Made by a program: the position numbers and the translations under genes. The notes beneath the pieces were generated by a model, which did no database searches, was not told the DNA's origin, and saw only the letters and a program-made list of their open reading frames with translations. From Minisyncoccota bacterium (lineage in GTDB: Bacteria; Patescibacteriota; Minisyncoccia; Phycocordibacterales; UBA918), in contig JAJOLD010000001.1 of NCBI GenBank assembly GCA_021129515.1, positions 257,217 to 321,216 of the forward strand: DNA of 64,000 nucleotides, read 5' to 3'. Each line of letters begins with the position of its first letter. The first letter of the stretch is position 1. Positions 19,784-54,993 of the stretch are shown piece by piece.

Positions 19784-22700
19784 TTAGCCAATAGCTTTCA
19801 CTGCCTTCATCACAGCCAACTTAACGGAAGCTGTTTCGTTAGAGTACGTACCATCAATTGCTGAGGTAAGCGCTCCGATAGCTGCTTCGTACTTCGCGTC
19901 GAGGTCGGCATTTTGACCCTTCGTCGCTCGGTACTGTGCATCAAGGTCTGCTGCTGCAGTCGCAAGTGTCGCAAGTGGGTTTTCACCAAGTGTTGCGTAT
20001 GCAGCTACTACGTCACCCTTCATGATTGCTGCCGCAAGTGCGTCAGTTGACGCTGGAGTGGCAACGGGTGCTGGAGTTGGTGCTGCGGTCATCTGCACAC
20101 CTGCAGCATGCATAAGTGCTACTGCACGTTCTTTGTTGATGACTGCCCATCCATCTTCAAGTGGATGTGCTTCTTTCACTTTGTTAATAAGTGTATCCAA
20201 GAGTGCAAATCGCGCTTCAGTAGTATCAGCTTGTTCGATAATGAATCGAATTGCGTTACTTGAAAGTAGACAATTTGCTTCGTTTGCTCGGTTTTCGAGT
20301 GCTGCGATTTCGTCGGCATCCTGACCGTTGTCTGCAAATGCCACATCCTCTGTTGCCACCTCTTCTGTGTCCGCTGCATATCCAACAACTGGATTGTATG
20401 TTGCAGTTGGCAGATTTGATGGAATGTCAGTCGCTGCAGGAATCGTGTGCTTGGTCACCTCAGGAACAGTTACGCTCTGTGGCATAAATGTCTGTTCTGT
20501 TGCCGTATCATTTGGAAGTTCGATACCAAGTACTGAACTCTTTCGAATCACGAGTACGTATGCAACACCAAGACTCCAGACAATAAGCAGTGTGTAGAAG
20601 ATTGCGGTCAATGTTGGACCTGCTTCAAAACCAGTGTATGGCACGCTTCCGAGGGACACCACGAGTGGCTGTTGGTCACGTACAACACTCAAGGTTACAT
20701 CATCTTCAATTTCTACCTCGACTTTACAGTCACGATCCCTACTTCCACGGAATACGGTCATCGTATACTCAGTATCTCGCGTTGGCTTGAGGGTAATAGA
20801 ACCGTCATCCTCGTCAACATCTTTATCTTCTGATCGTTCGGTGTCGATAATCACGTTTCCGCGGTTATCTTCAATCTTCATGTCATTTGTTCGGGCGTTG
20901 TCCCAGGTAAGGGTAATTTCTTCACCCTTGGTAATCTTGGTGTCTGAAATTTCAAGTTCACAACGAGGTGAGCTTGAACCACCACCGCCACCACCAGAAG
21001 TGGTATCAACTGATACGGTACACGTCACTTCATCGGTACCATCGGTAGCAGTAAGCGTGTAGGTGGTATCGCTGTTTACGGTAACGGTTTCATCACCATC
21101 AACAGCTACCGCACCAATACCTTGGTCAATAGACACACTCGTTGCACCAGTTGTGTTCCACTTGAGTTCTACTGATGAACCTTCATGAACACTGCTGTCA
21201 CTCACCGTAAATGCATCACAACGTAGTTCTGAAACCGGTTCATCTTCAATAGTTACCGTATCATCACAGGTCACAGTCTTACCATGTCCTGTTGCAGTCA
21301 ATGTATATGTTGTATCGGTAGTTGGTGCAGATGTAGTAGAACCATCAGTTGTGACAGAACCAATACCTTGGTCAATAGATACCGTATCAGCATTTACCGT
21401 TGACCACGTGAGCGTCACGTCGTCACCCTTGGTAATCGTGTCGGGAGTCACGGCAAGTGTACACTGTGGTTCAGGATTTGGCGTTGCAACAATAATTTTT
21501 TCTTCACATGTTACCTGACCGCCAGCGCCCGTTGCAGTAAGGGTATAGGTTTTTGTTTCTGTTACGTTGAGTACCTTGCTTCCATCGGGATCTACCGTAC
21601 CAACCCCTTGGTCAATAGAGACATCAGTAGCGTTTGTTGTTTCCCACGTGAAGGTCACGTCGCCACCACCAATAGGAAGTGATGCTGGAATACCAGCAAA
21701 TGCATCACAGGTAGGTGCAGGTACTTCGATTTTTTCAAACATCGCACATACTGGTTCTACGCTGTTTGCTGATGTGGTGTCTGGGTATTTTGCATGTATT
21801 GCTTTAATACCAGTAATTGGCTGTGTGAGCATATACTTTGTTTCGACAACCTGCTCACGCTGTGCTTCACGCACAGTATCAGCAAGATCACCAATTGCAT
21901 CAGATGCTTGTACACGAGTACCGTTCACAAAGAATCCAAGGTACCACCGTTCATCTGGCTGTGAGACTTGCTCACGACCGTTGTACCCATCCCATGAGAA
22001 GAGGGTAATTTTGTAGCTCCCAGCATCAAGATTCACATTTCGAAGCACAGTTGTCGCTTGTGAAGAATCTTGGTCGCTGCGGATGCGATTATTAAATGAA
22101 ACAACAGTTCGGTCAGCATTGCCCGCAAATGGACATGCTGGACGTACCGGATTTTCTGGCACCTCGACAACCACCTCAGTTGTACAGGTTTTGCTTCCTG
22201 CTGCATTTTTTGCAGTGAGAGTGTACGTTGTGTCGGTTGTTGGTGCTACGGTTGTCGTACCGTCTTCAGCAACAACACCAACGCCATTATCAATCATAAC
22301 TTCGGTTGCGTCGGTAGTCTCCCAAGTCAACGTTGCTGACGCACCTTTCGTAATTTTTGATGGCTGTGCGTCAAATGCATCACATGTTGGCAATGGATCT
22401 GGAATGCGTTCAACCATTGCACACACTGGCCAAAGACTATTTGGACTTGTGTTGTCTACCCATGCTGCATGTACTGCTTTTACACCGGTAATTGTGTCGG
22501 TAATAGTAAGTGCATTGTTCACCTTTTGCTTTCGCTGTGCAGTTTCTACACCATCAGCAAGATCAGCTGTTGAACCAGACTCAGCAAGTACGTTTGCACC
22601 ATTGAGGAACACCAAACGGTATTGCTCTCGATTCTGTCCAGTTACTGCTGTGCGCCCAACATACCCGTCGTACGCAAAGAGGTGTACTTTGTAGTCTCCC

Positions 22701-23041
22701 GCAGGAAGATTGGTTGACTCAACATCAGTTTCAGGATTATTGAAATTCTTTGAGCTGTAAATACGGTCAGTGAATTCAAAAACTGTTTTAGTATCACTAT
22801 CCTTAAATGGACATGCCGGAGGATCAATAAATTGTGTTGATGCAGATGCAACTGCCACCTCCATGGTCAATCCAGTTGTGTCAGTGCCCACATTTCCTAG
22901 TGATGGTAGCATCACAAAAACCGCAAGCAATGCACTGATAAGCGCAATAGCGGTAAATGCAACAGTACCAATATGTGTGTGTTTGATAATTGTATTCATG
23001 ATAATGTTTGTTGTTTCTAAATAATCCCACCTGCAATGCAC
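19784..23041 (-). CDS. giant repeat-containing surface protein (1085 aa) with an LPXTG-like sorting segment in mid-protein
   Basis: N-terminal signal/TM, then two tandem ~230-aa repeats (ACPF...YK..LF..DGY.GR...PVCAM.E.I..P.PTCDAF), then five Ig-like ~90-aa repeats (TLTW.T.NA..V.ID.G.G.V...TTDTTYTLTA). It continues with a Gly/Ser stretch, the segment SLGSVPYTGFEAG, a TM helix PTLTAIFYTLLIVWSLGVAYVLVI, then RK, and a ~290-aa tail. The likely start is the Met at ~22999 (MNTIIKH...). Confidence 0.85.
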   Translation of the reverse strand: MHCRWDYLETTNIIMNTIIKHTHIGTVAFTAIALISALLAVFVMLPSLGNVGTDTTGLTMEVAVASASTQFIDPPACPFKDSDTKTVFEFTDRIYSSKNFNNPETDVESTNLPAGDYKVHLFAYDGYVGRTAVTGQNREQYRLVFLNGANVLAESGSTADLADGVETAQRKQKVNNALTITDTITGVKAVHAAWVDNTSPNSLWPVCAMVERIPDPLPTCDAFDAQPSKITKGASATLTWETTDATEVMIDNGVGVVAEDGTTTVAPTTDTTYTLTAKNAAGSKTCTTEVVVEVPENPVRPACPFAGNADRTVVSFNNRIRSDQDSSQATTVLRNVNLDAGSYKITLFSWDGYNGREQVSQPDERWYLGFFVNGTRVQASDAIGDLADTVREAQREQVVETKYMLTQPITGIKAIHAKYPDTTSANSVEPVCAMFEKIEVPAPTCDAFAGIPASLPIGGGDVTFTWETTNATDVSIDQGVGTVDPDGSKVLNVTETKTYTLTATGAGGQVTCEEKIIVATPNPEPQCTLAVTPDTITKGDDVTLTWSTVNADTVSIDQGIGSVTTDGSTTSAPTTDTTYTLTATGHGKTVTCDDTVTIEDEPVSELRCDAFTVSDSSVHEGSSVELKWNTTGATSVSIDQGIGAVAVDGDETVTVNSDTTYTLTATDGTDEVTCTVSVDTTSGGGGGGSSSPRCELEISDTKITKGEEITLTWDNARTNDMKIEDNRGNVIIDTERSEDKDVDEDDGSITLKPTRDTEYTMTVFRGSRDRDCKVEVEIEDDVTLSVVRDQQPLVVSLGSVPYTGFEAGPTLTAIFYTLLIVWSLGVAYVLVIRKSSVLGIELPNDTATEQTFMPQSVTVPEVTKHTIPAATDIPSNLPTATYNPVVGYAADTEEVATEDVAFADNGQDADEIAALENRANEANCLLSSNAIRFIIEQADTTEARFALLDTLINKVKEAHPLEDGWAVINKERAVALMHAAGVQMTAAPTPAPVATPASTDALAAAIMKGDVVAAYATLGENPLATLATAAADLDAQYRATKGQNADLDAKYEAAIGALTSAIDGTYSNETASVKLAVMKAVKAIG

Positions 23042-47702: not shown

Positions 47703-48749
47703 CTACTTCCCTTTATTGAAAAATCCTGCAATAGCCGCTACGTGTTCGACTAATGTGTGCGTATAGCTGGTCTCGTTGTCGTACCACGCGAGCACTTTCA
47801 CAAGGTTACCACCGACCACGCGCGTGAATGCAAGATCAGCAATTGATGCGTAGCGAGCACCAATAATGTCCGAAGAAACAATCGGCTCATTGGTCACGGC
47901 AAAGAGGTTTTTCCAGCGGTCGGTTGCTGCAGCTTCAGTAAGTACTTTGTTCACCTCTTCTACCGTTGTCTCTCGATTTGCCACAAAGGTAACATCAACA
48001 ATAGACCCAACCGGCACGGGCACACGCATGGCAATACCATCGAACTGTCCATCGAGTTCAGTATGCACCTTGGTCGTTGCGACCGCAGCACCGGTTGAGG
48101 TTGGAATGATGTTTTGTGCAGCTGAACGCCCCTTACGAAAGTCTTTTGCGTTTGGTCTATCCACCAATGCCTGCGTTGAGGTGTATGCATGTACGGTGTT
48201 GAGGAGTGCTTTTTCGATACCAATATCTTCCTTCAAAATTGCAATCAATGGACTCGTCGCGTTTGTTGTACACGACGCGTTTGAACTCACACTGCAGGTC
48301 TCGAGCACGCTTTCGTTAGCACCCATAAGCACGGTTGCGCCTTCAATACCTGCAGCGACTGGATCGTCTTTGACCGGCGCTGAGATTACCACCCGCTTTG
48401 CACCAGCCTCAAGATGCACCTTTGCTTTCTCATAGCTCGCAAAGAAACCGGTTGCCTCAACCACAATATCAATATCTGTATCCTTCCACGGAAGGTTGAG
48501 GGGATCCCGCTCTGCATGACACGCGATGGTCTTGCCATCGACTACGAGGTTGCCGTCTTTGGTAGACACGTCGTGCGTACCACGACCATAGGCAGTATCG
48601 TACTTAAGGAGGTAGGCGAGGTTTTCAATATCGCCAAGATCATTGATAGCAACAATTTCAAATGAAGGGTTGTCGAGTGCCATACGGAAAAACGTTCTTC
48701 CAATACGACCAAATCCATTGATAGCTACACGTGTCATAACAAGGTGCAA
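47703..48749 (-). CDS. gap: glyceraldehyde-3-phosphate dehydrogenase
   Basis: VAINGFGRIGR and the active-site sequence SNASCTTN. Confidence 0.95.
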   Translation of the reverse strand: MHLVMTRVAINGFGRIGRTFFRMALDNPSFEIVAINDLGDIENLAYLLKYDTAYGRGTHDVSTKDGNLVVDGKTIACHAERDPLNLPWKDTDIDIVVEATGFFASYEKAKVHLEAGAKRVVISAPVKDDPVAAGIEGATVLMGANESVLETCSVSSNASCTTNATSPLIAILKEDIGIEKALLNTVHAYTSTQALVDRPNAKDFRKGRSAAQNIIPTSTGAAVATTKVHTELDGQFDGIAMRVPVPVGSIVDVTFVANRETTVEEVNKVLTEAAATDRWKNLFAVTNEPIVSSDIIGARYASIADLAFTRVVGGNLVKVLAWYDNETSYTHTLVEHVAAIAGFFNKGK

Positions 48750-48799: not shown

Positions 48800-50371
48800 T
48801 CAGCGTGCCGATTTGATAAGTGTTCTCGCAATAAGAAGCAGTATGATGAGCAAAAGAACAAACCATGGAAACAAATTCCAGAACAAAAAACCAAAACGTT
48901 CAATGAGTAGTGCCCATACACCCTCTGATGTTTCTGTGACGGAGGGAAAACTGATGGTAGCGCGCAGTGTACCGGTGAGTGTGCCACGCTGTTGCGTTTT
49001 GTAGTCATAGAGTGACACTACGAACGGAAACACTCCCGCAGTCCCAAGTGGCGCGAGCACGGCAACATATGCATCTTTTTCAGCATTAGCGCGCAACAAA
49101 AACGCAAAACGCTGCGTACTATCGGTTGCATCGTAGAGTGTGACCACAATGCTTTTAAGATGTTGTGGCACCGCATCAGCAGGCATAGACACAATAAGCT
49201 GCTTGGCACCGTCTATAGGAATAGTGGCATCATCAGCATGTATGGCGTGTCCATCTTGTATAAACGATAGCGTATCAAAAGAGAGTGGTATCTGCTGCGC
49301 GATTGGGACTGTTGGTGTTGCTGAAGGGATTAGTATCTCCGTATCTTCTGGTATGTGAGGTGGTACGTACGCAGTGAGTGCTCCCGATGAGACATTTCCT
49401 GCAGCATCGTATGCAAAGACACCATAGTATTGCACCTCAGTGGTCTGCCCCCTCTGCGCATCAATTGCCATGGTACTCGCGCCTTCATGTACGAGCCATC
49501 CGTCTGCAGCATCACTTGGATAGAATCGGTCGTTACGCAACACACGCACCTTCTCAATAGCACTCCCTGGTGGAATATCCCATTGAATAATCAAATGTGG
49601 ACCATCGCGATGTACTCGTACATTACGAACGTTCGTGGGTGGGTACTGTATGTCAAGCGGGAGTGTGGTAAAGGTGCTGGTGGTCAACACACCATGCGCA
49701 CCCACCTTATTCACTCCATGAATAGTGAATGCATAGGGGGTATTGGGAGTGAGCCCGGTAATCACCGTCTCGTGAGTTTTGCTATAGGAATGTGCCGCAA
49801 TAGAACCGAGTTCATAGGATGCTGTTTCACCCCAGTGCACCGTTGGGCGCACATACCCTTGTGTTTCATATCGAATACGTACCGCGTCCTGCATCGGAAT
49901 AATTTCAAGTGCGGTCAACACAATCGGTATGGGCTGCAAGGTAGTACTAGATCCACCGCCACCGCCGCTACTGCTCGTTGTTGTTGCAACGGCAAGTGTT
50001 GTCGTTGCAACCGACGCTGATGAGCTTGAAATATTATTTGAGGTATCAAACGCACGGATGAAGTAGGTATAGAGTGTCTCTGCAGTAAGTCCTGTATCTA
50101 CATATGTAGCGGTGGTGGCGGTTGCTATCTGGAGTGCATCACGAAACACCTGATACGCAACTGTACTCATGGCGTCGGTTGACGACGACCACGATACATT
50201 TATTTGTGACGTTGCTACCGGCACTGCCACCACATTGGTGGGTATCGATGGCGGAGTAGTATCACTGCCAAAAACAGTACGGACCGTGACCGTGTCAGAC
50301 ACTGCGTGTGCGTGGAATGCAACAACACAATATCCAATGAGTGCTATTGAAACAAGTCGTACATATGACAT
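48800..50371 (-). CDS. secreted fibronectin-type-III repeat protein with a C-terminal TM anchor
   Basis: Signal peptide. At least 3 FN3 modules, e.g. PPSIPTNVVAVPVATSQINVSWSSSTD...YQVFRD...LYTYFIRAFDTSNN. A Ser/Thr/Gly linker. The C-terminus is LFPWFVLLLIILLLIARTLIKSAR. Confidence 0.8.
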   Translation of the reverse strand: MSYVRLVSIALIGYCVVAFHAHAVSDTVTVRTVFGSDTTPPSIPTNVVAVPVATSQINVSWSSSTDAMSTVAYQVFRDALQIATATTATYVDTGLTAETLYTYFIRAFDTSNNISSSSASVATTTLAVATTTSSSGGGGGSSTTLQPIPIVLTALEIIPMQDAVRIRYETQGYVRPTVHWGETASYELGSIAAHSYSKTHETVITGLTPNTPYAFTIHGVNKVGAHGVLTTSTFTTLPLDIQYPPTNVRNVRVHRDGPHLIIQWDIPPGSAIEKVRVLRNDRFYPSDAADGWLVHEGASTMAIDAQRGQTTEVQYYGVFAYDAAGNVSSGALTAYVPPHIPEDTEILIPSATPTVPIAQQIPLSFDTLSFIQDGHAIHADDATIPIDGAKQLIVSMPADAVPQHLKSIVVTLYDATDSTQRFAFLLRANAEKDAYVAVLAPLGTAGVFPFVVSLYDYKTQQRGTLTGTLRATISFPSVTETSEGVWALLIERFGFLFWNLFPWFVLLLIILLLIARTLIKSAR

Positions 50372-50383
50372 ATCGATACGCTA

Positions 50384-51163
50384 TTACAACGGCAATGCCG
50401 TAATAGTAGTAGTAGCAGTATACACCCCTGGTGCCTGCAATACTGACCCGCCAACCCCAACACGGAAGTGAATAGTCGTCGTTGCACCGTTTGGATGGTT
50501 GGCATTTGTATTGGCAGCAATTTGTACCGCCGTGGTACTCAACCCATCCCAACACGCAAACGCAGAGTCAGTGGTATCGACATTACAGGTGTCGGAGCCA
50601 TTGTCTTTAAAGCGTTGTACGATATCGACCCCTTCTGGAGTATAGCCTAAGTGACTATCAGCAGTGCTCGTGATAAATGCAAAATCAGGCACTGCGCCTA
50701 CCGGCGTATAATCAGCAATGGTGTCAGACCCTTTTTGCATTGCCGGACTGTTTGCAGCTGCAATAGTGAGCTCGTACCCTGATGGACTATCAGTGGTGAC
50801 GGTGACCGTGGTTGAGCCATTTGAAATACCACCCGTGACACCTGCAATTGAAGGACTCATGGTCACATTGCCTGCTCCAGTGAGCGCAATATATACTTCC
50901 TGCATCTGCTGGTATCCTGCCTTGAGTGCATACGATGCGCTCGACGACTCACCCGTTGCAACCTCGCCAACGGTGGATTCTTGTACATAACTTGTCGATG
51001 ATGAAAGCCCTCCACCGGCATTGATGCTGTCACTTTGTATTGCATAGTTACTACTCTGCATGACCTGTGCATACAGCGTATTTCCGTACACACATCCGAA
51101 ACCGAGTATTGCAGAGAGCACTACTATGGGTATGAAATCACTGCGCATACCTTTTTTCATCAC
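50384..51163 (-). CDS. secreted beta-rich Ser/Thr/Gly-rich protein (259 aa), paralog of 52199-52912
   Basis: Signal peptide. Shared blocks with the paralog: VTMSP.I.G..GG..NG..TV.V.T...SGY..TI and TTTIHFRV...YTAT. Possibly WxL-like (CWDGL); not confirmed. Confidence 0.65.
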   Translation of the reverse strand: MMKKGMRSDFIPIVVLSAILGFGCVYGNTLYAQVMQSSNYAIQSDSINAGGGLSSSTSYVQESTVGEVATGESSSASYALKAGYQQMQEVYIALTGAGNVTMSPSIAGVTGGISNGSTTVTVTTDSPSGYELTIAAANSPAMQKGSDTIADYTPVGAVPDFAFITSTADSHLGYTPEGVDIVQRFKDNGSDTCNVDTTDSAFACWDGLSTTAVQIAANTNANHPNGATTTIHFRVGVGGSVLQAPGVYTATTTITALPL

Positions 51164-52182
51164 ACTTTTCTCTTAAATTCAAAGGTGGTAAAGAACATGC
51201 GTATCAAGAACACAATCATAAACACCACTACACACACCATGAGGAGCACCTTCCATGGAAGCACCCAGAAGGTCACGTCCATTTCATCAATAATATCGTC
51301 GTAGCCTCGATTAATACGAGCGGTTGCCGTGTACTTACCAAACAAAAATTCTCGCGACCATACAACCTCACGGAACCGCAATGACTGTGGCAGTGCGAAC
51401 CATGGTTCTATTTCAATAAAACCTACTTCCTCACCAAACATATTGGTGATGGAGAGTTCTCCATAGGGGTTTACGTGTACCGAGCCGGTGTTTGCATACA
51501 GTAATTCAAAATGAATGGGACCGCCGTCGAACCACGACGCATCCGGAATGGTAGCAAATTTCTGCAATGCGCCTTCGTATGCAATAGCACCTGGTACTGT
51601 AATGAAAAACAATGTACCAATACGACTCACAATAGGAGACTTTGGTACCGCATTTGTACTGGAGGTATCAGCAACATCTTTCGTCACCGTTGTCACCAGC
51701 ACACTTCCGTAGAGTCCTCCTGGTTCGGCATCAGCAGGAATAGATACCGTCACTGGTACCCGTGCCCGCTCTGCATGTTTAAGTGGAATTCCCTCGGTGG
51801 GCACCTCAAGGTAATCACGCAACGAATAAGGACCGCGGTCATCACCGAGCAATTTAACCGCAATATCACCTCCTGTAGTACCAACGACATCTTCTGTTTC
51901 AAAATTAAAGACACGTGATTCACCAGTACGGTTTGTGATGAGAATTTCGGTAGTCACCGTCTCTCCAGGCTGCAGACGCAATTCCGTTTTGCCTGGTCCT
52001 ACCACAAAGTCACCAAGCACTTCATCGCCAGGAATTGTTTCAAGACGATACGCAGGTTTTTGCTGTATCTCAGCGGCTTCTGTTGCTGCTTCTTGCGCAA
52101 AAACACTCATGGGGAGCCCCATGAGCGCAAGCGCGCAGACCCACATAGACACACCATATTGCATGCGATCTGCTTGTATCAT
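51160..52182 (-). CDS. cell-surface protein with an N-terminal signal peptide and a C-terminal TM anchor (340 aa); architecture like CscA/DUF916 proteins
   Basis: Signal peptide MWVCALALMGLPMSVFAQE. Predicted extracellular beta-rich domain. C-terminal VLPWKVLLMVCVVVFMIVFLIRMFF followed by basic residues. Confidence 0.65.
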   Translation of the reverse strand: MIQADRMQYGVSMWVCALALMGLPMSVFAQEAATEAAEIQQKPAYRLETIPGDEVLGDFVVGPGKTELRLQPGETVTTEILITNRTGESRVFNFETEDVVGTTGGDIAVKLLGDDRGPYSLRDYLEVPTEGIPLKHAERARVPVTVSIPADAEPGGLYGSVLVTTVTKDVADTSSTNAVPKSPIVSRIGTLFFITVPGAIAYEGALQKFATIPDASWFDGGPIHFELLYANTGSVHVNPYGELSITNMFGEEVGFIEIEPWFALPQSLRFREVVWSREFLFGKYTATARINRGYDDIIDEMDVTFWVLPWKVLLMVCVVVFMIVFLIRMFFTTFEFKRKV

Positions 52183-52198
52183 AGTAGTCGAATGTAAG

Positions 52199-52912
52199 TT
52201 AATTAGTAGTTGCGGTCAACGTAGCCGTTGCGGTGTAAGTGTCCGCCTGTAAGAGTGGTGATGGGTTTGATGGTACTGAAACACGGAAATGAATAGTGGT
52301 TGTTGAACCACTTGCTGGAGTTTCGGTACTTCGGTTAATTATGGTTTCTGCAATTGGAGTACTCCCATCGGTAGTACTTGCATTGAACCAACACCGATCA
52401 AACGTATTGTTCGAACCAGCACCACACGCAGCACCATTATCGAGGAACGTTGGGTCTACATCACTTGAGGTTGATGCCTGCACTGAGTATGCAAACTCAC
52501 CCGGGGTACCCGAACCACCAATGCTAAAGTTGTAGTCAGGAACGCTTGCGGATGCTGGAGAGTAGTTGTTGATGACACCACCTTCACTATCACCCTGCAT
52601 CGCCGTCCCCGTCGCGAACTGGATAGTCATGTTATAGCCCGATGTGTTGTTGGTTGATACCACTACGGTTGCGTTACCATTTGCAGTACCTCCAGAGATA
52701 CCAGGAATAGTTGGACTCATGGTTACGTCAGTTGCTGTGGTGTCGAAAGAAATTTCAGCAGTGATTGATTGCGTAATCTCAAAGAAATCAGAATCTGCAG
52801 CTGCACGACCAACAACCGGCTCAAGTACCACGTACGAGGTGATACCAATTACTGCCACTATCAGCGTAGTGACGAACGACATTTTTGCGGAATACAACGC
52901 TTGTAAAAACAT
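52199..52912 (-). CDS. secreted beta-rich protein (237 aa), paralog of 50384-51163
   Basis: N-terminal TM/signal segment. Conserved blocks are shared with 50384-51163. Confidence 0.65.
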   Translation of the reverse strand: MFLQALYSAKMSFVTTLIVAVIGITSYVVLEPVVGRAAADSDFFEITQSITAEISFDTTATDVTMSPTIPGISGGTANGNATVVVSTNNTSGYNMTIQFATGTAMQGDSEGGVINNYSPASASVPDYNFSIGGSGTPGEFAYSVQASTSSDVDPTFLDNGAACGAGSNNTFDRCWFNASTTDGSTPIAETIINRSTETPASGSTTTIHFRVSVPSNPSPLLQADTYTATATLTATTN

Positions 52913-53907: not shown

Positions 53908-54993
53908 CTATCGCAGCGTATCAATAATGTATGCCTTGAGCGCGCTTGTCTGTACACCGAAGTGTGACTCAAACACATATGCGTCTTCATACTGTCCGCT
54001 TGCAGCATAGTATGTCCAACGTGTCTCTGGAAGAAGCGACAGCGCAGTGAGTACCGCACAAAAGCATGCTGTCAGAATGACAAACCCAAACCCTGCAGGT
54101 TGTGGCTCTGCCTCGACTACCGGCACACGAGATCCACGCTTCGTAACCGAAGCGACTTGTGCTTCATCATCAGCGCCTGCTTCTTGCGTAGTAGCGCTGT
54201 CATGCACTGGTGTCTGAGTAGTTGCTGGCGTAGCAGCAACATCGTACTGCTCGAGCTTATCAGAAAATGGCACCGGTGCATCTGCGTCAACACCCTCATG
54301 ATGTTCGGGAACCTCGTCATGCATTACATGCACTGGCACCGCATTAGTATCTGCCGATTTTGACTGCTTCTTTTTTTTATGGGTGTGTCGTTTTTTGGCA
54401 GCATGCGCTTCTGCGCGTTCAAGTGCTGCAATTTCTTTTTCAGTGAGCACATCAGCATGCAACAGCACCGCATCTGCATCATGGTATTCTTCATCGCCCA
54501 CATCAACGACATCAAGCGTCCCTGACATGAGCACCTTTTCACCTTCGTGTTCAATGGTGTAGTCTGGCTCTGAGTCTGCGGGTGCTGTCGCTGTGTGTTT
54601 TGCACGATTGGCTGGAGGTGCCTCACTCGTGATGCTGAGCTTGCGCACATTTGGGATGAGCGCCTCAGTGTCTTCTTCGTAGTGCACTGTGGTGAGGTGT
54701 CGGGTCATAAAATGTCTATTGGTCTGTGGCGCAGTATGTTTTTGTACTGTGCGTTTTTGTGTTGCAACCGCAGCACGCACTTGCTCTCGTGATTTTGTTT
54801 TTGCTGTTCTGTTTGCGGTTGAGCGGTATGCACGCAAATCATTCTGATCAACATACCAACTCCGCCCTACTAGTTGCGCATCAACTTTCCCACCACGACA
54901 AAGCTGCCCCACATAGTCTGGAGTGTACCCAGCATCCTTTGCTGCTTCAGATGCTTTTACATATGTTTTTCCATCAAGAACAACAGACTTCAT
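53908..54993 (-). CDS. paralogous HTH_17-domain membrane protein with a long His/Lys/acidic linker
   Basis: YVKASEAAKDAGYTPDYVGQLCRGGKVDAQLVGRSWYVDQNDL N-terminal HTH. TM helix GFGFVILTACFCAVLTALSLL near the C-terminus. Confidence 0.65.
   Translation of the reverse strand: MKSVVLDGKTYVKASEAAKDAGYTPDYVGQLCRGGKVDAQLVGRSWYVDQNDLRAYRSTANRTAKTKSREQVRAAVATQKRTVQKHTAPQTNRHFMTRHLTTVHYEEDTEALIPNVRKLSITSEAPPANRAKHTATAPADSEPDYTIEHEGEKVLMSGTLDVVDVGDEEYHDADAVLLHADVLTEKEIAALERAEAHAAKKRHTHKKKKQSKSADTNAVPVHVMHDEVPEHHEGVDADAPVPFSDKLEQYDVAATPATTQTPVHDSATTQEAGADDEAQVASVTKRGSRVPVVEAEPQPAGFGFVILTACFCAVLTALSLLPETRWTYYAASGQYEDAYVFESHFGVQTSALKAYIIDTLR

Follow-up and report, generated by a model that had tools for sequence, protein, structure and literature searches.

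The Pam filaments of the candidate phyla radiation (CPR) bacterium "Ca. Mycosynbacter amalyticus" have been solved (Troman et al., bioRxiv 2026, doi 10.64898/2026.03.03.709456). They are proposed to be assembled without an usher, from immunoglobulin (Ig)-like pilins joined by donor-strand exchange. According to the same preprint, the pilins PamA and PamB are made up of an N-terminal domain, a donated linker, which is their most conserved part, and a truncated Ig C-terminal domain, and PamT is a single-domain tip pilin. The chaperones PamC and PamD are described as PapD-like and retained by a C-terminal transmembrane (TM) segment, and PamR as an RbmA-like FN3 protein, also with a C-terminal TM segment, that plugs and anchors the fibre (doi 10.64898/2026.03.03.709456). 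A second system of interest is the WxL/Csc cluster of Lactobacillales and Listeria, in which CscA is a WxLIP protein (DUF916-DUF3324-TM), CscB and CscC are the small and large WxL proteins, and CscD is an LPXTG protein. In AlphaFold models, WxLIP fills in the WxL beta-sandwich with a strand of its own (PMC10599100), and a WxLIP-WxL complex has been crystallized (PDB 9i25); this is donor-strand complementation in all but name. The Pam preprint never mentions WxL or DUF916, and no link between the two systems was found in the literature searched. Here, we describe a cassette of four genes located in a 64,000-nucleotide stretch (the window) of a Minisyncoccota bacterium genome (GenBank assembly GCA_021129515.1, contig JAJOLD010000001.1, positions 257,217 to 321,216). 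We consider it probable, with some reserve, that the cassette is a Paceibacteria-type CPR operon for an usher-less, chaperone-assisted donor-strand surface fibre, related to the Pam pilus and minimal in composition.

The four open reading frames (ORFs), which span positions 48800 to 52912 on the minus strand, code in the direction of transcription for proteins of 237, 340, 259 and 523 amino acids (aa) (Table 1), previously annotated as just "hypothetical" or "DUF916." An earlier reading of this DNA from its letters alone (the sequence-only reading) had described four consecutive minus-strand genes for exported proteins. The ORFs are found as described, and a hydrophobicity scan located an N-terminal hydrophobic segment, equivalent to an export signal, in all four products (residues 12 to 30 in the 237-aa protein, p237), with C-terminal TM anchors confined to the 340-aa and 523-aa proteins. 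The gap between the p237 and 340-aa genes is 16 bp, the 340-aa gene and that of the 259-aa protein (p259) overlap by a TGATG stop/start, and 12 bp separate the latter from the 523-aa gene. No extra copies of the cassette components were found in the 64-kb window. Scans for promoters and terminators told little, and promoter-like sites were fewer in the real than in the shuffled sequence.

Relatives retrieved by word-indexed homolog searches numbered 1829 for the 340-aa protein, 1860 for p259 (61 to 75% identity with the closest homologs) and 295 for p237. Species-representative genomes were scanned with two motifs of the 340-aa family, GDFVVGPGK and AEPGGxYGSVLV, and 205 stretches turned out to encode a relative of this protein; the best 80 of them were nearly all Paceibacteria-type (Kaiserbacteria, Nomurabacteria, Parcubacteria and Paceibacterota). 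Synteny was followed through 82 related loci annotated by hidden Markov models. The order p237, chaperone-like protein, p259 and FN3 protein, all on one strand, was kept in the 82 loci. The complete cassette together with GAPDH was present in 54, and the other 28 kept this order too, showing either a partial cassette, in most cases on short or truncated contigs, or homologs of the genes upstream in the window. The p237 homolog came first in 78 loci and an FN3 homolog followed p259 in 78. No usher-sized gene was present in the cassette of the window or in those of the 82 related loci. Given the tight or overlapping junctions and the same order and strand in 82 loci, the four genes most probably form one operon.

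Table 1. Features of the cassette and of the gene pair upstream of it (window coordinates)
Feature	Position	Strand	Remarks
p237, secreted pilin-fold paralog, first cassette gene	52199-52912	-	N-terminal signal/anchor, conserved single beta-strand extension, Ig-like domain
p237 N-terminal extension, residues 40-56, DSDFFEITQSITAEISF	52745-52795	-	Candidate donor strand; family conservation, role by analogy with donor-strand-exchange pilins
340-aa membrane-anchored chaperone-like protein, WxLIP/CscA (DUF916) homolog	51160-52182	-	Signal peptide, two Ig-like beta-sandwich domains, C-terminal TM helix
340-aa protein, domain 1, beta-sandwich, residues 46-166	51685-52047	-	DUF916/WxLIP_PGBD-like; Pfam and PDB alignments, invariant columns, model strands
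340-aa protein, domain 2, beta-sandwich, residues 185-307	51262-51630	-	AlphaFold model; placed like DUF3324 in WxLIP and like domain 2 in PapD-like chaperones
340-aa protein, C-terminal TM helix, residues 312-330	51193-51249	-	Followed by basic tail FEFKRKV; hydrophobicity scan and model
p259, secreted pilin-fold paralog, distant PamT homolog	50384-51163	-	Probable true start ATG at 51160
p259 N-terminal extension, residues 33-98	50870-51067	-	Candidate donor/linker; three S-x-(N/S)-Y repeats ending in KAGYQQMQEVYIAL
p259 Ig-like pilin domain, residues 99-259	50387-50869	-	Invariant Cys pair C193/C204, invariant Trp W205
523-aa FN3-repeat protein	48800-50371	-	Candidate stalk/anchor, PamR analog; signal peptide and C-terminal TM anchor
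FN3 protein, mature N-terminal strand-like segment, residues 25-36, SDTVTVRTVFGS	50264-50299	-	Before first FN3; candidate plug of the last pilin, role from PamR model
FN3 protein, C-terminal TM helix, residues 496-514	48830-48886	-	Hydrophobicity scan; basic tail after it
Upstream paralogous gene pair, 282 and 361 aa	53028-53876 and 53908-54993	-	N-terminal HTH_17-like domain and one internal TM segment each

The chaperone-like protein and its partners

The sequence-only reading had assigned the 340-aa protein, with its signal peptide and C-terminal TM segment, to the CscA/DUF916 type, and both profile and structure comparisons bear this out, with WxLIP as the best match. Pfam PF06030 (WxLIP_PGBD, DUF916) gave 26.9 bits (E = 5.5e-6; cutoff, 27.3) for the protein itself and matched 96 of 102 members of its family (best E = 1.3e-9). 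Enterococcus faecium WxLIP1 (EfmWxLIP1; PDB 9i25 and 9i1y) was matched at E = 8e-6 by the single protein and at 1.6e-7 by the family profile. We also assembled a comparison set of eight WxL clusters from plasmid records of Enterococcus, Lactiplantibacillus, Lactococcus, Listeria and Vagococcus, and hhalign of the 340-aa family against their eight WxLIP proteins gave 96.6% (E = 6e-10). The AlphaFold model consists of two beta-sandwiches plus a C-terminal helix (mean predicted local distance difference test score, pLDDT, of 91.2). Its best Foldseek matches in the PDB were WxLIP 9i1y and 9i25 (E = 4e-12, ca. 274 columns, covering both domains). RbmA ranked below them, and then came the chaperones of chaperone-usher systems CfaA, CsuC, Caf1M, FimC, EcpB, DraB and CupB2, with E values of 1e-8 to 1e-6; the alignments to WxLIP and to these chaperones extended over about 250 to 280 columns. 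As regards the second domain, the structural match spans both WxLIP domains, and Pfam detected no DUF3324 among the 102 members of the family.

Other WxLIP traits, i.e., the length (about 320 to 380 aa), signal peptide, single C-terminal TM segment and basic tail, are all present in the 340-aa protein, and the FEFKRK of the tail is conserved in the family consensus. The two most conserved motifs of the family, GDFVVGPGK and AEPGGxYGSVLV, are both in domain 1, where the model places the former on the first strands and the latter on the last one. PapD-like chaperones contact and complement their subunits at the first and last strands of domain 1, and by this analogy the two motifs would occupy the subunit-complementing sites. 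Judging from the model and the homology searches, the 340-aa protein is a true CscA/WxLIP homolog and, structurally, a membrane-tethered PapD-like protein.

The two proteins encoded on either side of it, both rich in Thr, Ser, Ala and Gly, had been described earlier as Ser/Thr/Gly-rich paralogs. Their kinship is clear from BLASTP (38% identity over 157 aa, E = 1e-21) and from hhalign of the family profiles (100%, E = 8e-43), and the shared blocks that had been pointed out (VTMSP..., TTTIHFRV and YTAT) all fall within the p237/p259 alignment. The AlphaFold model of p259 points to a donor-strand pilin fold for the paralogs, as the best structural matches are polymerizing donor-strand subunits. 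Searches against PDB chains with single sequences and profiles, TLP, TasA and pilins included, gave nothing meaningful, and Pfam produced noise for p237, p259 and 144 family members, with lone weak matches to Caf1, Fimbrial and others (E > 0.02). The NCBIfam model of PamT (NF058579) matched p259 (38.5 bits, E = 8e-10, residues 14 to 151) and each of the 66 members of the p259 subfamily (best E = 1.3e-12). Since all of these scores are far under the equivalog cutoff of 240 bits, we regard p259 as a distant PamT homolog and not as an equivalog.

The N-terminal extension of p259, although disordered in the monomer (pLDDT < 50 for residues 33 to 85), belongs to the best-conserved regions of the family, with many positions at 80 to 99%, which makes it a candidate donor strand or linker, as in PamA/PamB and TLP-1. 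The extension of the p237 family (consensus D.FTV.Q.IT.EISF) is also conserved and is shorter than that of p259.

The WxL/Csc interpretation given by the sequence-only reading holds for the 340-aa protein but not for the paralogs. WxL-domain proteins are expected to have two conserved Trp-x-Leu motifs in a domain of 160 to 190 aa, and the real WxL proteins fetched for comparison mostly had two W-x-L motifs; the paralogs lack this motif pair. No W-x-L motif was present in p237 or p259, and among the 144 family members three had one and none had two. Pfam WxL matched none of the 144 at E <= 1, and hhalign of the family against 12 real WxL domains gave 0.9% (negative controls, 0.3 to 1.1%). The candidate motifs put forward previously, CWDGL and CWFNAS, contain the sole invariant Trp of the paralogs, a C-W beside the invariant Cys pair and not part of a W-x-L. 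The C-terminal hairpin of the paralogs (FRVxVP...TYTATATLTA) resembles that of WxL proteins (LxVP...TYTSTLTWxL) at a non-significant level. Profile and motif tests thus reject WxL-domain membership. TasA/camelysin membership was rejected as well, as Peptidase_M73 matched none of the 144 members. The outcome that had been named as contrary to the WxL/Csc interpretation, a TasA-like fold without a CscA-like partner, is not the situation here because a CscA-like partner exists in the cassette. The caveat that this could be a diverged or novel version proved apt, with paralogs of pilin fold and p259 a distant homolog of PamT.

Some gene models differ from those in the databases. The NCBI gene LR017_01460 (225 aa) starts at M35 of p259 and so drops the signal peptide. 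The likely start lies one codon downstream of the ORF start, and the long form is supported because the homologs have 252 to 256 aa and the start forms the TGATG overlap with the upstream gene. In the NCBI annotation, p237 has 227 aa, 10 residues fewer than the ORF. The matches of 100% identity to the window belong to a "Candidatus Pacebacteria" metagenome-assembled genome (locus tags LR017_01460 and LR017_01470). Two metagenome proteins of 549 to 577 aa (P0394 and P0395) appear to be read-through fusions of the chaperone-like gene with the downstream pilin gene, which fits the overlapping stop/start of the window. P0395 has a DUF916-like domain followed by a TM segment, an S-x-x-Y extension and a pilin domain, and P0394 matches both DUF916 and PamT.

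The 523-aa protein is, as proposed before, an FN3-repeat protein with a C-terminal TM segment (PF00041, E = 2e-8), and a second FN3-like stretch covers residues 166 to 236. We recovered 73 homologs of 462 to 635 aa, mostly between 511 and 568. The short strand-like segment that precedes its first FN3 domain has a motif, F.IR...G.D, that is moderately conserved in the family. The FN3 domains and the C-terminal TM helix agree with the description of PamR, and the segment may correspond to the extra N-terminal strand of the latter.

A putative donor-strand fibre and its alternatives

This kind of system has been known since 2026 from the Pam pilus. As the Pam pilus comes from CPR classes other than this one and is composed differently, the Paceibacteria cassette is a variant of the Pam type with a new composition. 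Our model of how it would work builds on features established computationally, namely, the folds, topology, WxLIP homology, distant PamT homology, paralogy and synteny. All four proteins would be exported via the Sec pathway, as indicated by their N-terminal hydrophobic segments. The computed fold, TM segment and WxLIP homology suggest that the C-terminal helix of the 340-aa protein anchors it in the membrane and that the two Ig-like domains lie outside. There it may capture both pilin-fold subunits by inserting a beta-strand in their incomplete Ig fold, as predicted for WxLIP and proposed for PamC/D. Subunits would become linked as the conserved N-terminal extension of the next one displaces the strand of the chaperone. 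The N-terminal strand of the FN3 protein would plug the last subunit, and the C-terminal helix of this protein would tether the fibre to the cell, as modeled for PamR. How strands are inserted, how the subunits polymerize, what each paralog does and how the fibre is anchored are drawn here by analogy with the described systems.

Several facts weigh against this interpretation. Pam filaments have been observed, whereas the Paceibacteria cassette is known from genes and predicted folds, and it has neither the two-domain pilins PamA/PamB nor the ATP synthase neighbourhood of the pam operons. The PamT match of p259, besides its low score, is limited to residues 14 to 151, and the PamT model found no match in the p237 subfamily. 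Furthermore, PamT was described as having no donor strand (doi 10.64898/2026.03.03.709456), yet the p259 extension is conserved. The 340-aa and 523-aa proteins are likened here to PamC/D and PamR from the descriptions in the preprint, and the literature treats WxLIP as a scaffold that binds peptidoglycan or the host rather than as a chaperone for pili.

The main rival is a non-filamentous complex of the WxL/Csc type, in which the WxLIP-like protein holds the paralogs on the wall and the FN3 protein is a co-anchor, with no polymerization. It draws on the fact that the WxLIP-like protein alone has solid sequence homology to a characterized family. The gene order (small partner, WxLIP-like protein and second partner, plus an anchored protein) parallels that of the Firmicute clusters fetched here, including variants with small and large partners, and the C-terminal hairpin of the paralogs recalls the one in WxL. 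We nevertheless consider such a complex unlikely. The paralogs fail the profile and motif tests for WxL, their best structural matches polymerize by donor strands, and p259 is a homolog of PamT, which belongs to a system that makes real filaments. In addition, a near-invariant N-terminal extension lacking structure in the monomer would be hard to account for in a simple wall-docked domain.

Chaperone-free fibres similar to TasA, TLP or cannulae, in which the paralogs self-polymerize and the 340-aa and 523-aa genes do other jobs, e.g., wall binding, are quite improbable. In every related locus examined, a chaperone-like gene lies between the paralogs with a translationally coupled junction, its homolog WxLIP binds a partner directly (9i25), and no member of the paralog family has the Peptidase_M73 domain. 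That four unrelated exported proteins are merely adjacent and form no functional system is hardly credible: the uninformative promoter and terminator scans would allow it, but order and strand are kept in 82 loci from many Paceibacteria lineages, the junctions overlap or are near-contiguous, and in Firmicutes the homologous components associate physically.

Long relatives and genomic surroundings

An exhaustive profile search of the pilin module returned 743 clusters at 50% identity (E <= 0.001). Many of these relatives are much longer than the cassette paralogs (450 to 2187 aa) and carry the module at their extreme C-terminus, preceded by passenger domains such as Beta_helix, Laminin_G_3/ConA-like lectin, Cadherin-like, DUF2341 or beta-propeller; the names of the cluster members were uninformative. 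In five long relatives, an S-x-x-Y segment lies between the passenger domain and the module, i.e., at the "linker" position. Two-domain relatives can also fill the p259 slot in other genomes, as in locus L092, where the gene of a 453-aa protein stands in for that of p259 and the neighbourhood is otherwise the same, an arrangement that equals the "small, WxLIP, large" pattern of WxL clusters. The occurrence of lectin, beta-helix and cadherin-like domains ahead of the same C-terminal module suggests that adhesins are displayed by the system and probably serve to attach the bacterium to host cells or to surfaces.

In 25 of the 63 loci with sufficient upstream sequence (e.g., L001, 1 to 6282, and L002, 1 to 6819, with 23 others), the gene immediately preceding the cassette, in the same orientation, encodes a giant protein. 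These giants form one family, with ORFs of 1,100 to 2,300 aa in the fetched loci and called genes of up to 3,280 aa, and many end in "...DAIQVRxYxQAGGGGGGGGGEI," a tail that resembles a sorting or processing signal. The pilin module was not found in them, and they have no homolog in the window. The window does contain an ORF of 1085 aa (19784 to 23041, minus strand) with an N-terminal TM-like segment; it matched nothing in Pfam and shares no similarity with the giant proteins encoded beside the cassette in other genomes. In another locus (L091, 9001 to 18427), a two-domain relative of the paralogs (P0468, 365 aa) is located beside an apparent diversity-generating retroelement, with an RVT_1 reverse transcriptase, bAvd/23S_rRNA_IVP accessory genes and a target protein of the FGE-sulfatase type. 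This adjacency suggests a coupling between hypervariable adhesins and certain versions of the system.

The window consists of ordinary chromosomal DNA, with housekeeping genes such as those for DnaE, SMC, SecA, GyrB, ThrRS, GatB and GAPDH, and its GC content and composition are unremarkable. Given these surroundings and GC content, a mobile-element origin of the cassette is unlikely. The GAPDH gene (47703 to 48749, minus strand) begins 50 bp downstream of the cassette, and in most related genomes GAPDH, RpiB and Rpe (plus transketolase in relatives) trail it on the same strand. A surface-structure operon is therefore kept beside core carbon metabolism, which recalls the "metabolic coupling" noted by the Pam authors for ATP synthase. 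Upstream of the cassette, the N-terminal HTH_17-like domains of the 282-aa and 361-aa proteins are paralogous (E = 2e-8), and the best promoter-like site of the region, in a scan that gave fewer sites than shuffled sequence, is just 5' of the 361-aa gene. Homologs of these two genes precede the cassette in 17 of the 82 loci, so the association is optional, but on this account their products, putative membrane-tethered DNA-binding proteins, may regulate it. A paper on Paceibacteria metatranscriptomes contained nothing specific on this gene cluster.

Comparison with described systems

Of the uncultured bacteria in groundwater and freshwater, Paceibacteria and related groups rank among the most abundant, and they are thought to live attached to host cells. 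To our knowledge, their attachment machinery is largely obscure apart from type IV pili. The fibre proposed here would extend the Pam concept to another CPR class, in a simpler form, and the portable C-terminal module could be used as a tool to find CPR adhesins in metagenomes. It would also provide a mechanistic hypothesis, that of an assembly chaperone, for the enigmatic WxLIP/CscA of lactic acid bacteria, enterococci and Listeria. The presence of a WxLIP/DUF916 protein together with PamT-like pilin-fold partners suggests that WxL clusters and Pam pili share an ancestral principle of chaperone-assisted assembly. More tentatively, and we would not yet bet on it, both could be branches of one ancient single-membrane, usher-less system in which PapD-like chaperones handle strand-deficient Ig-like modules. 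If so, WxLIP, PamC/D and the 340-aa family would be the same type of tethered chaperone, and the peptidoglycan- or host-binding role of WxLIP would be a misassignment of what is actually an assembly chaperone. The Paceibacteria cassette would then be the minimal form and the main host-attachment fibre of a large uncultured group, with the C-terminal module of ca. 200 aa acting as a general-purpose "plug-in" for fitting adhesin domains of various kinds onto the fibre.

With the chaperone-usher pili (archaic sigma type, such as Csu and CupE, with SCPU-domain pilins), the cassette has in common the chaperone fold, similar to that of CsuC, CfaA, Caf1M and FimC, and subunit genes on either side of the chaperone gene. 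In contrast, it has no usher, its chaperone is membrane-tethered and its subunits have no similarity to the Fimbrial or SCPU Pfam families. CPR bacteria have no outer membrane.

The TLP-1a/b fibrils recovered from pond water (CryoSeek, PMC11494351; PDB 9ikj and 9ikk) are made of a secreted protomer of 236 to 237 aa, a size like that of p237. Their Ig-like head is completed by donor-strand exchange, and the donor N-terminal strand is disordered in AlphaFold predictions (PMC11494351). They are among the closest solved structures to the Ig domain of p259, yet the identity is 15 to 17% and there is no profile match. No chaperone is known for TLP-1, and the closest predicted homolog has been attributed to a Flavobacteriales metagenome-assembled genome. 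TLP-1 shows that environmental donor-strand fibres of the same general design exist, although they do not belong to the same family as the paralogs.

The WxL/Csc clusters share with the cassette a WxLIP homolog of equal size and topology, the order small partner, WxLIP and second (often larger) partner with an additional anchored protein, and the existence of "large" partner versions with N-terminal binding domains and a C-terminal module. They differ in that the partners in the cassette have neither the dual W-x-L nor a WxL profile match, domain 2 of the 340-aa protein is not recognized as DUF3324 by sequence, the anchor is a TM helix with FN3 repeats instead of LPXTG, and the host is a CPR bacterium and not a Firmicute.

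Compared with the Pam pilus, two single-domain paralogs take the place of the two-domain pilins PamA, PamB and PamE, and there is one chaperone-like protein where Pam has two. The FN3 protein is larger (523 aa) and has more than two domains, the neighbours are GAPDH and pentose-phosphate genes instead of ATP synthase, and the hosts are Paceibacteria-type instead of Saccharimonadia or Microgenomatia. The features shared are a CPR lineage, signal peptides on all components, the lack of an usher, a two-domain chaperone with a predicted PapD-like fold that is retained by a C-terminal TM helix, paired cysteines in the Ig-like subunits and, as a candidate anchor, an FN3 protein with a C-terminal TM segment. 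In both, the highest conservation is found in the segment before the Ig domain, and the p259 family is itself a distant homolog of PamT.

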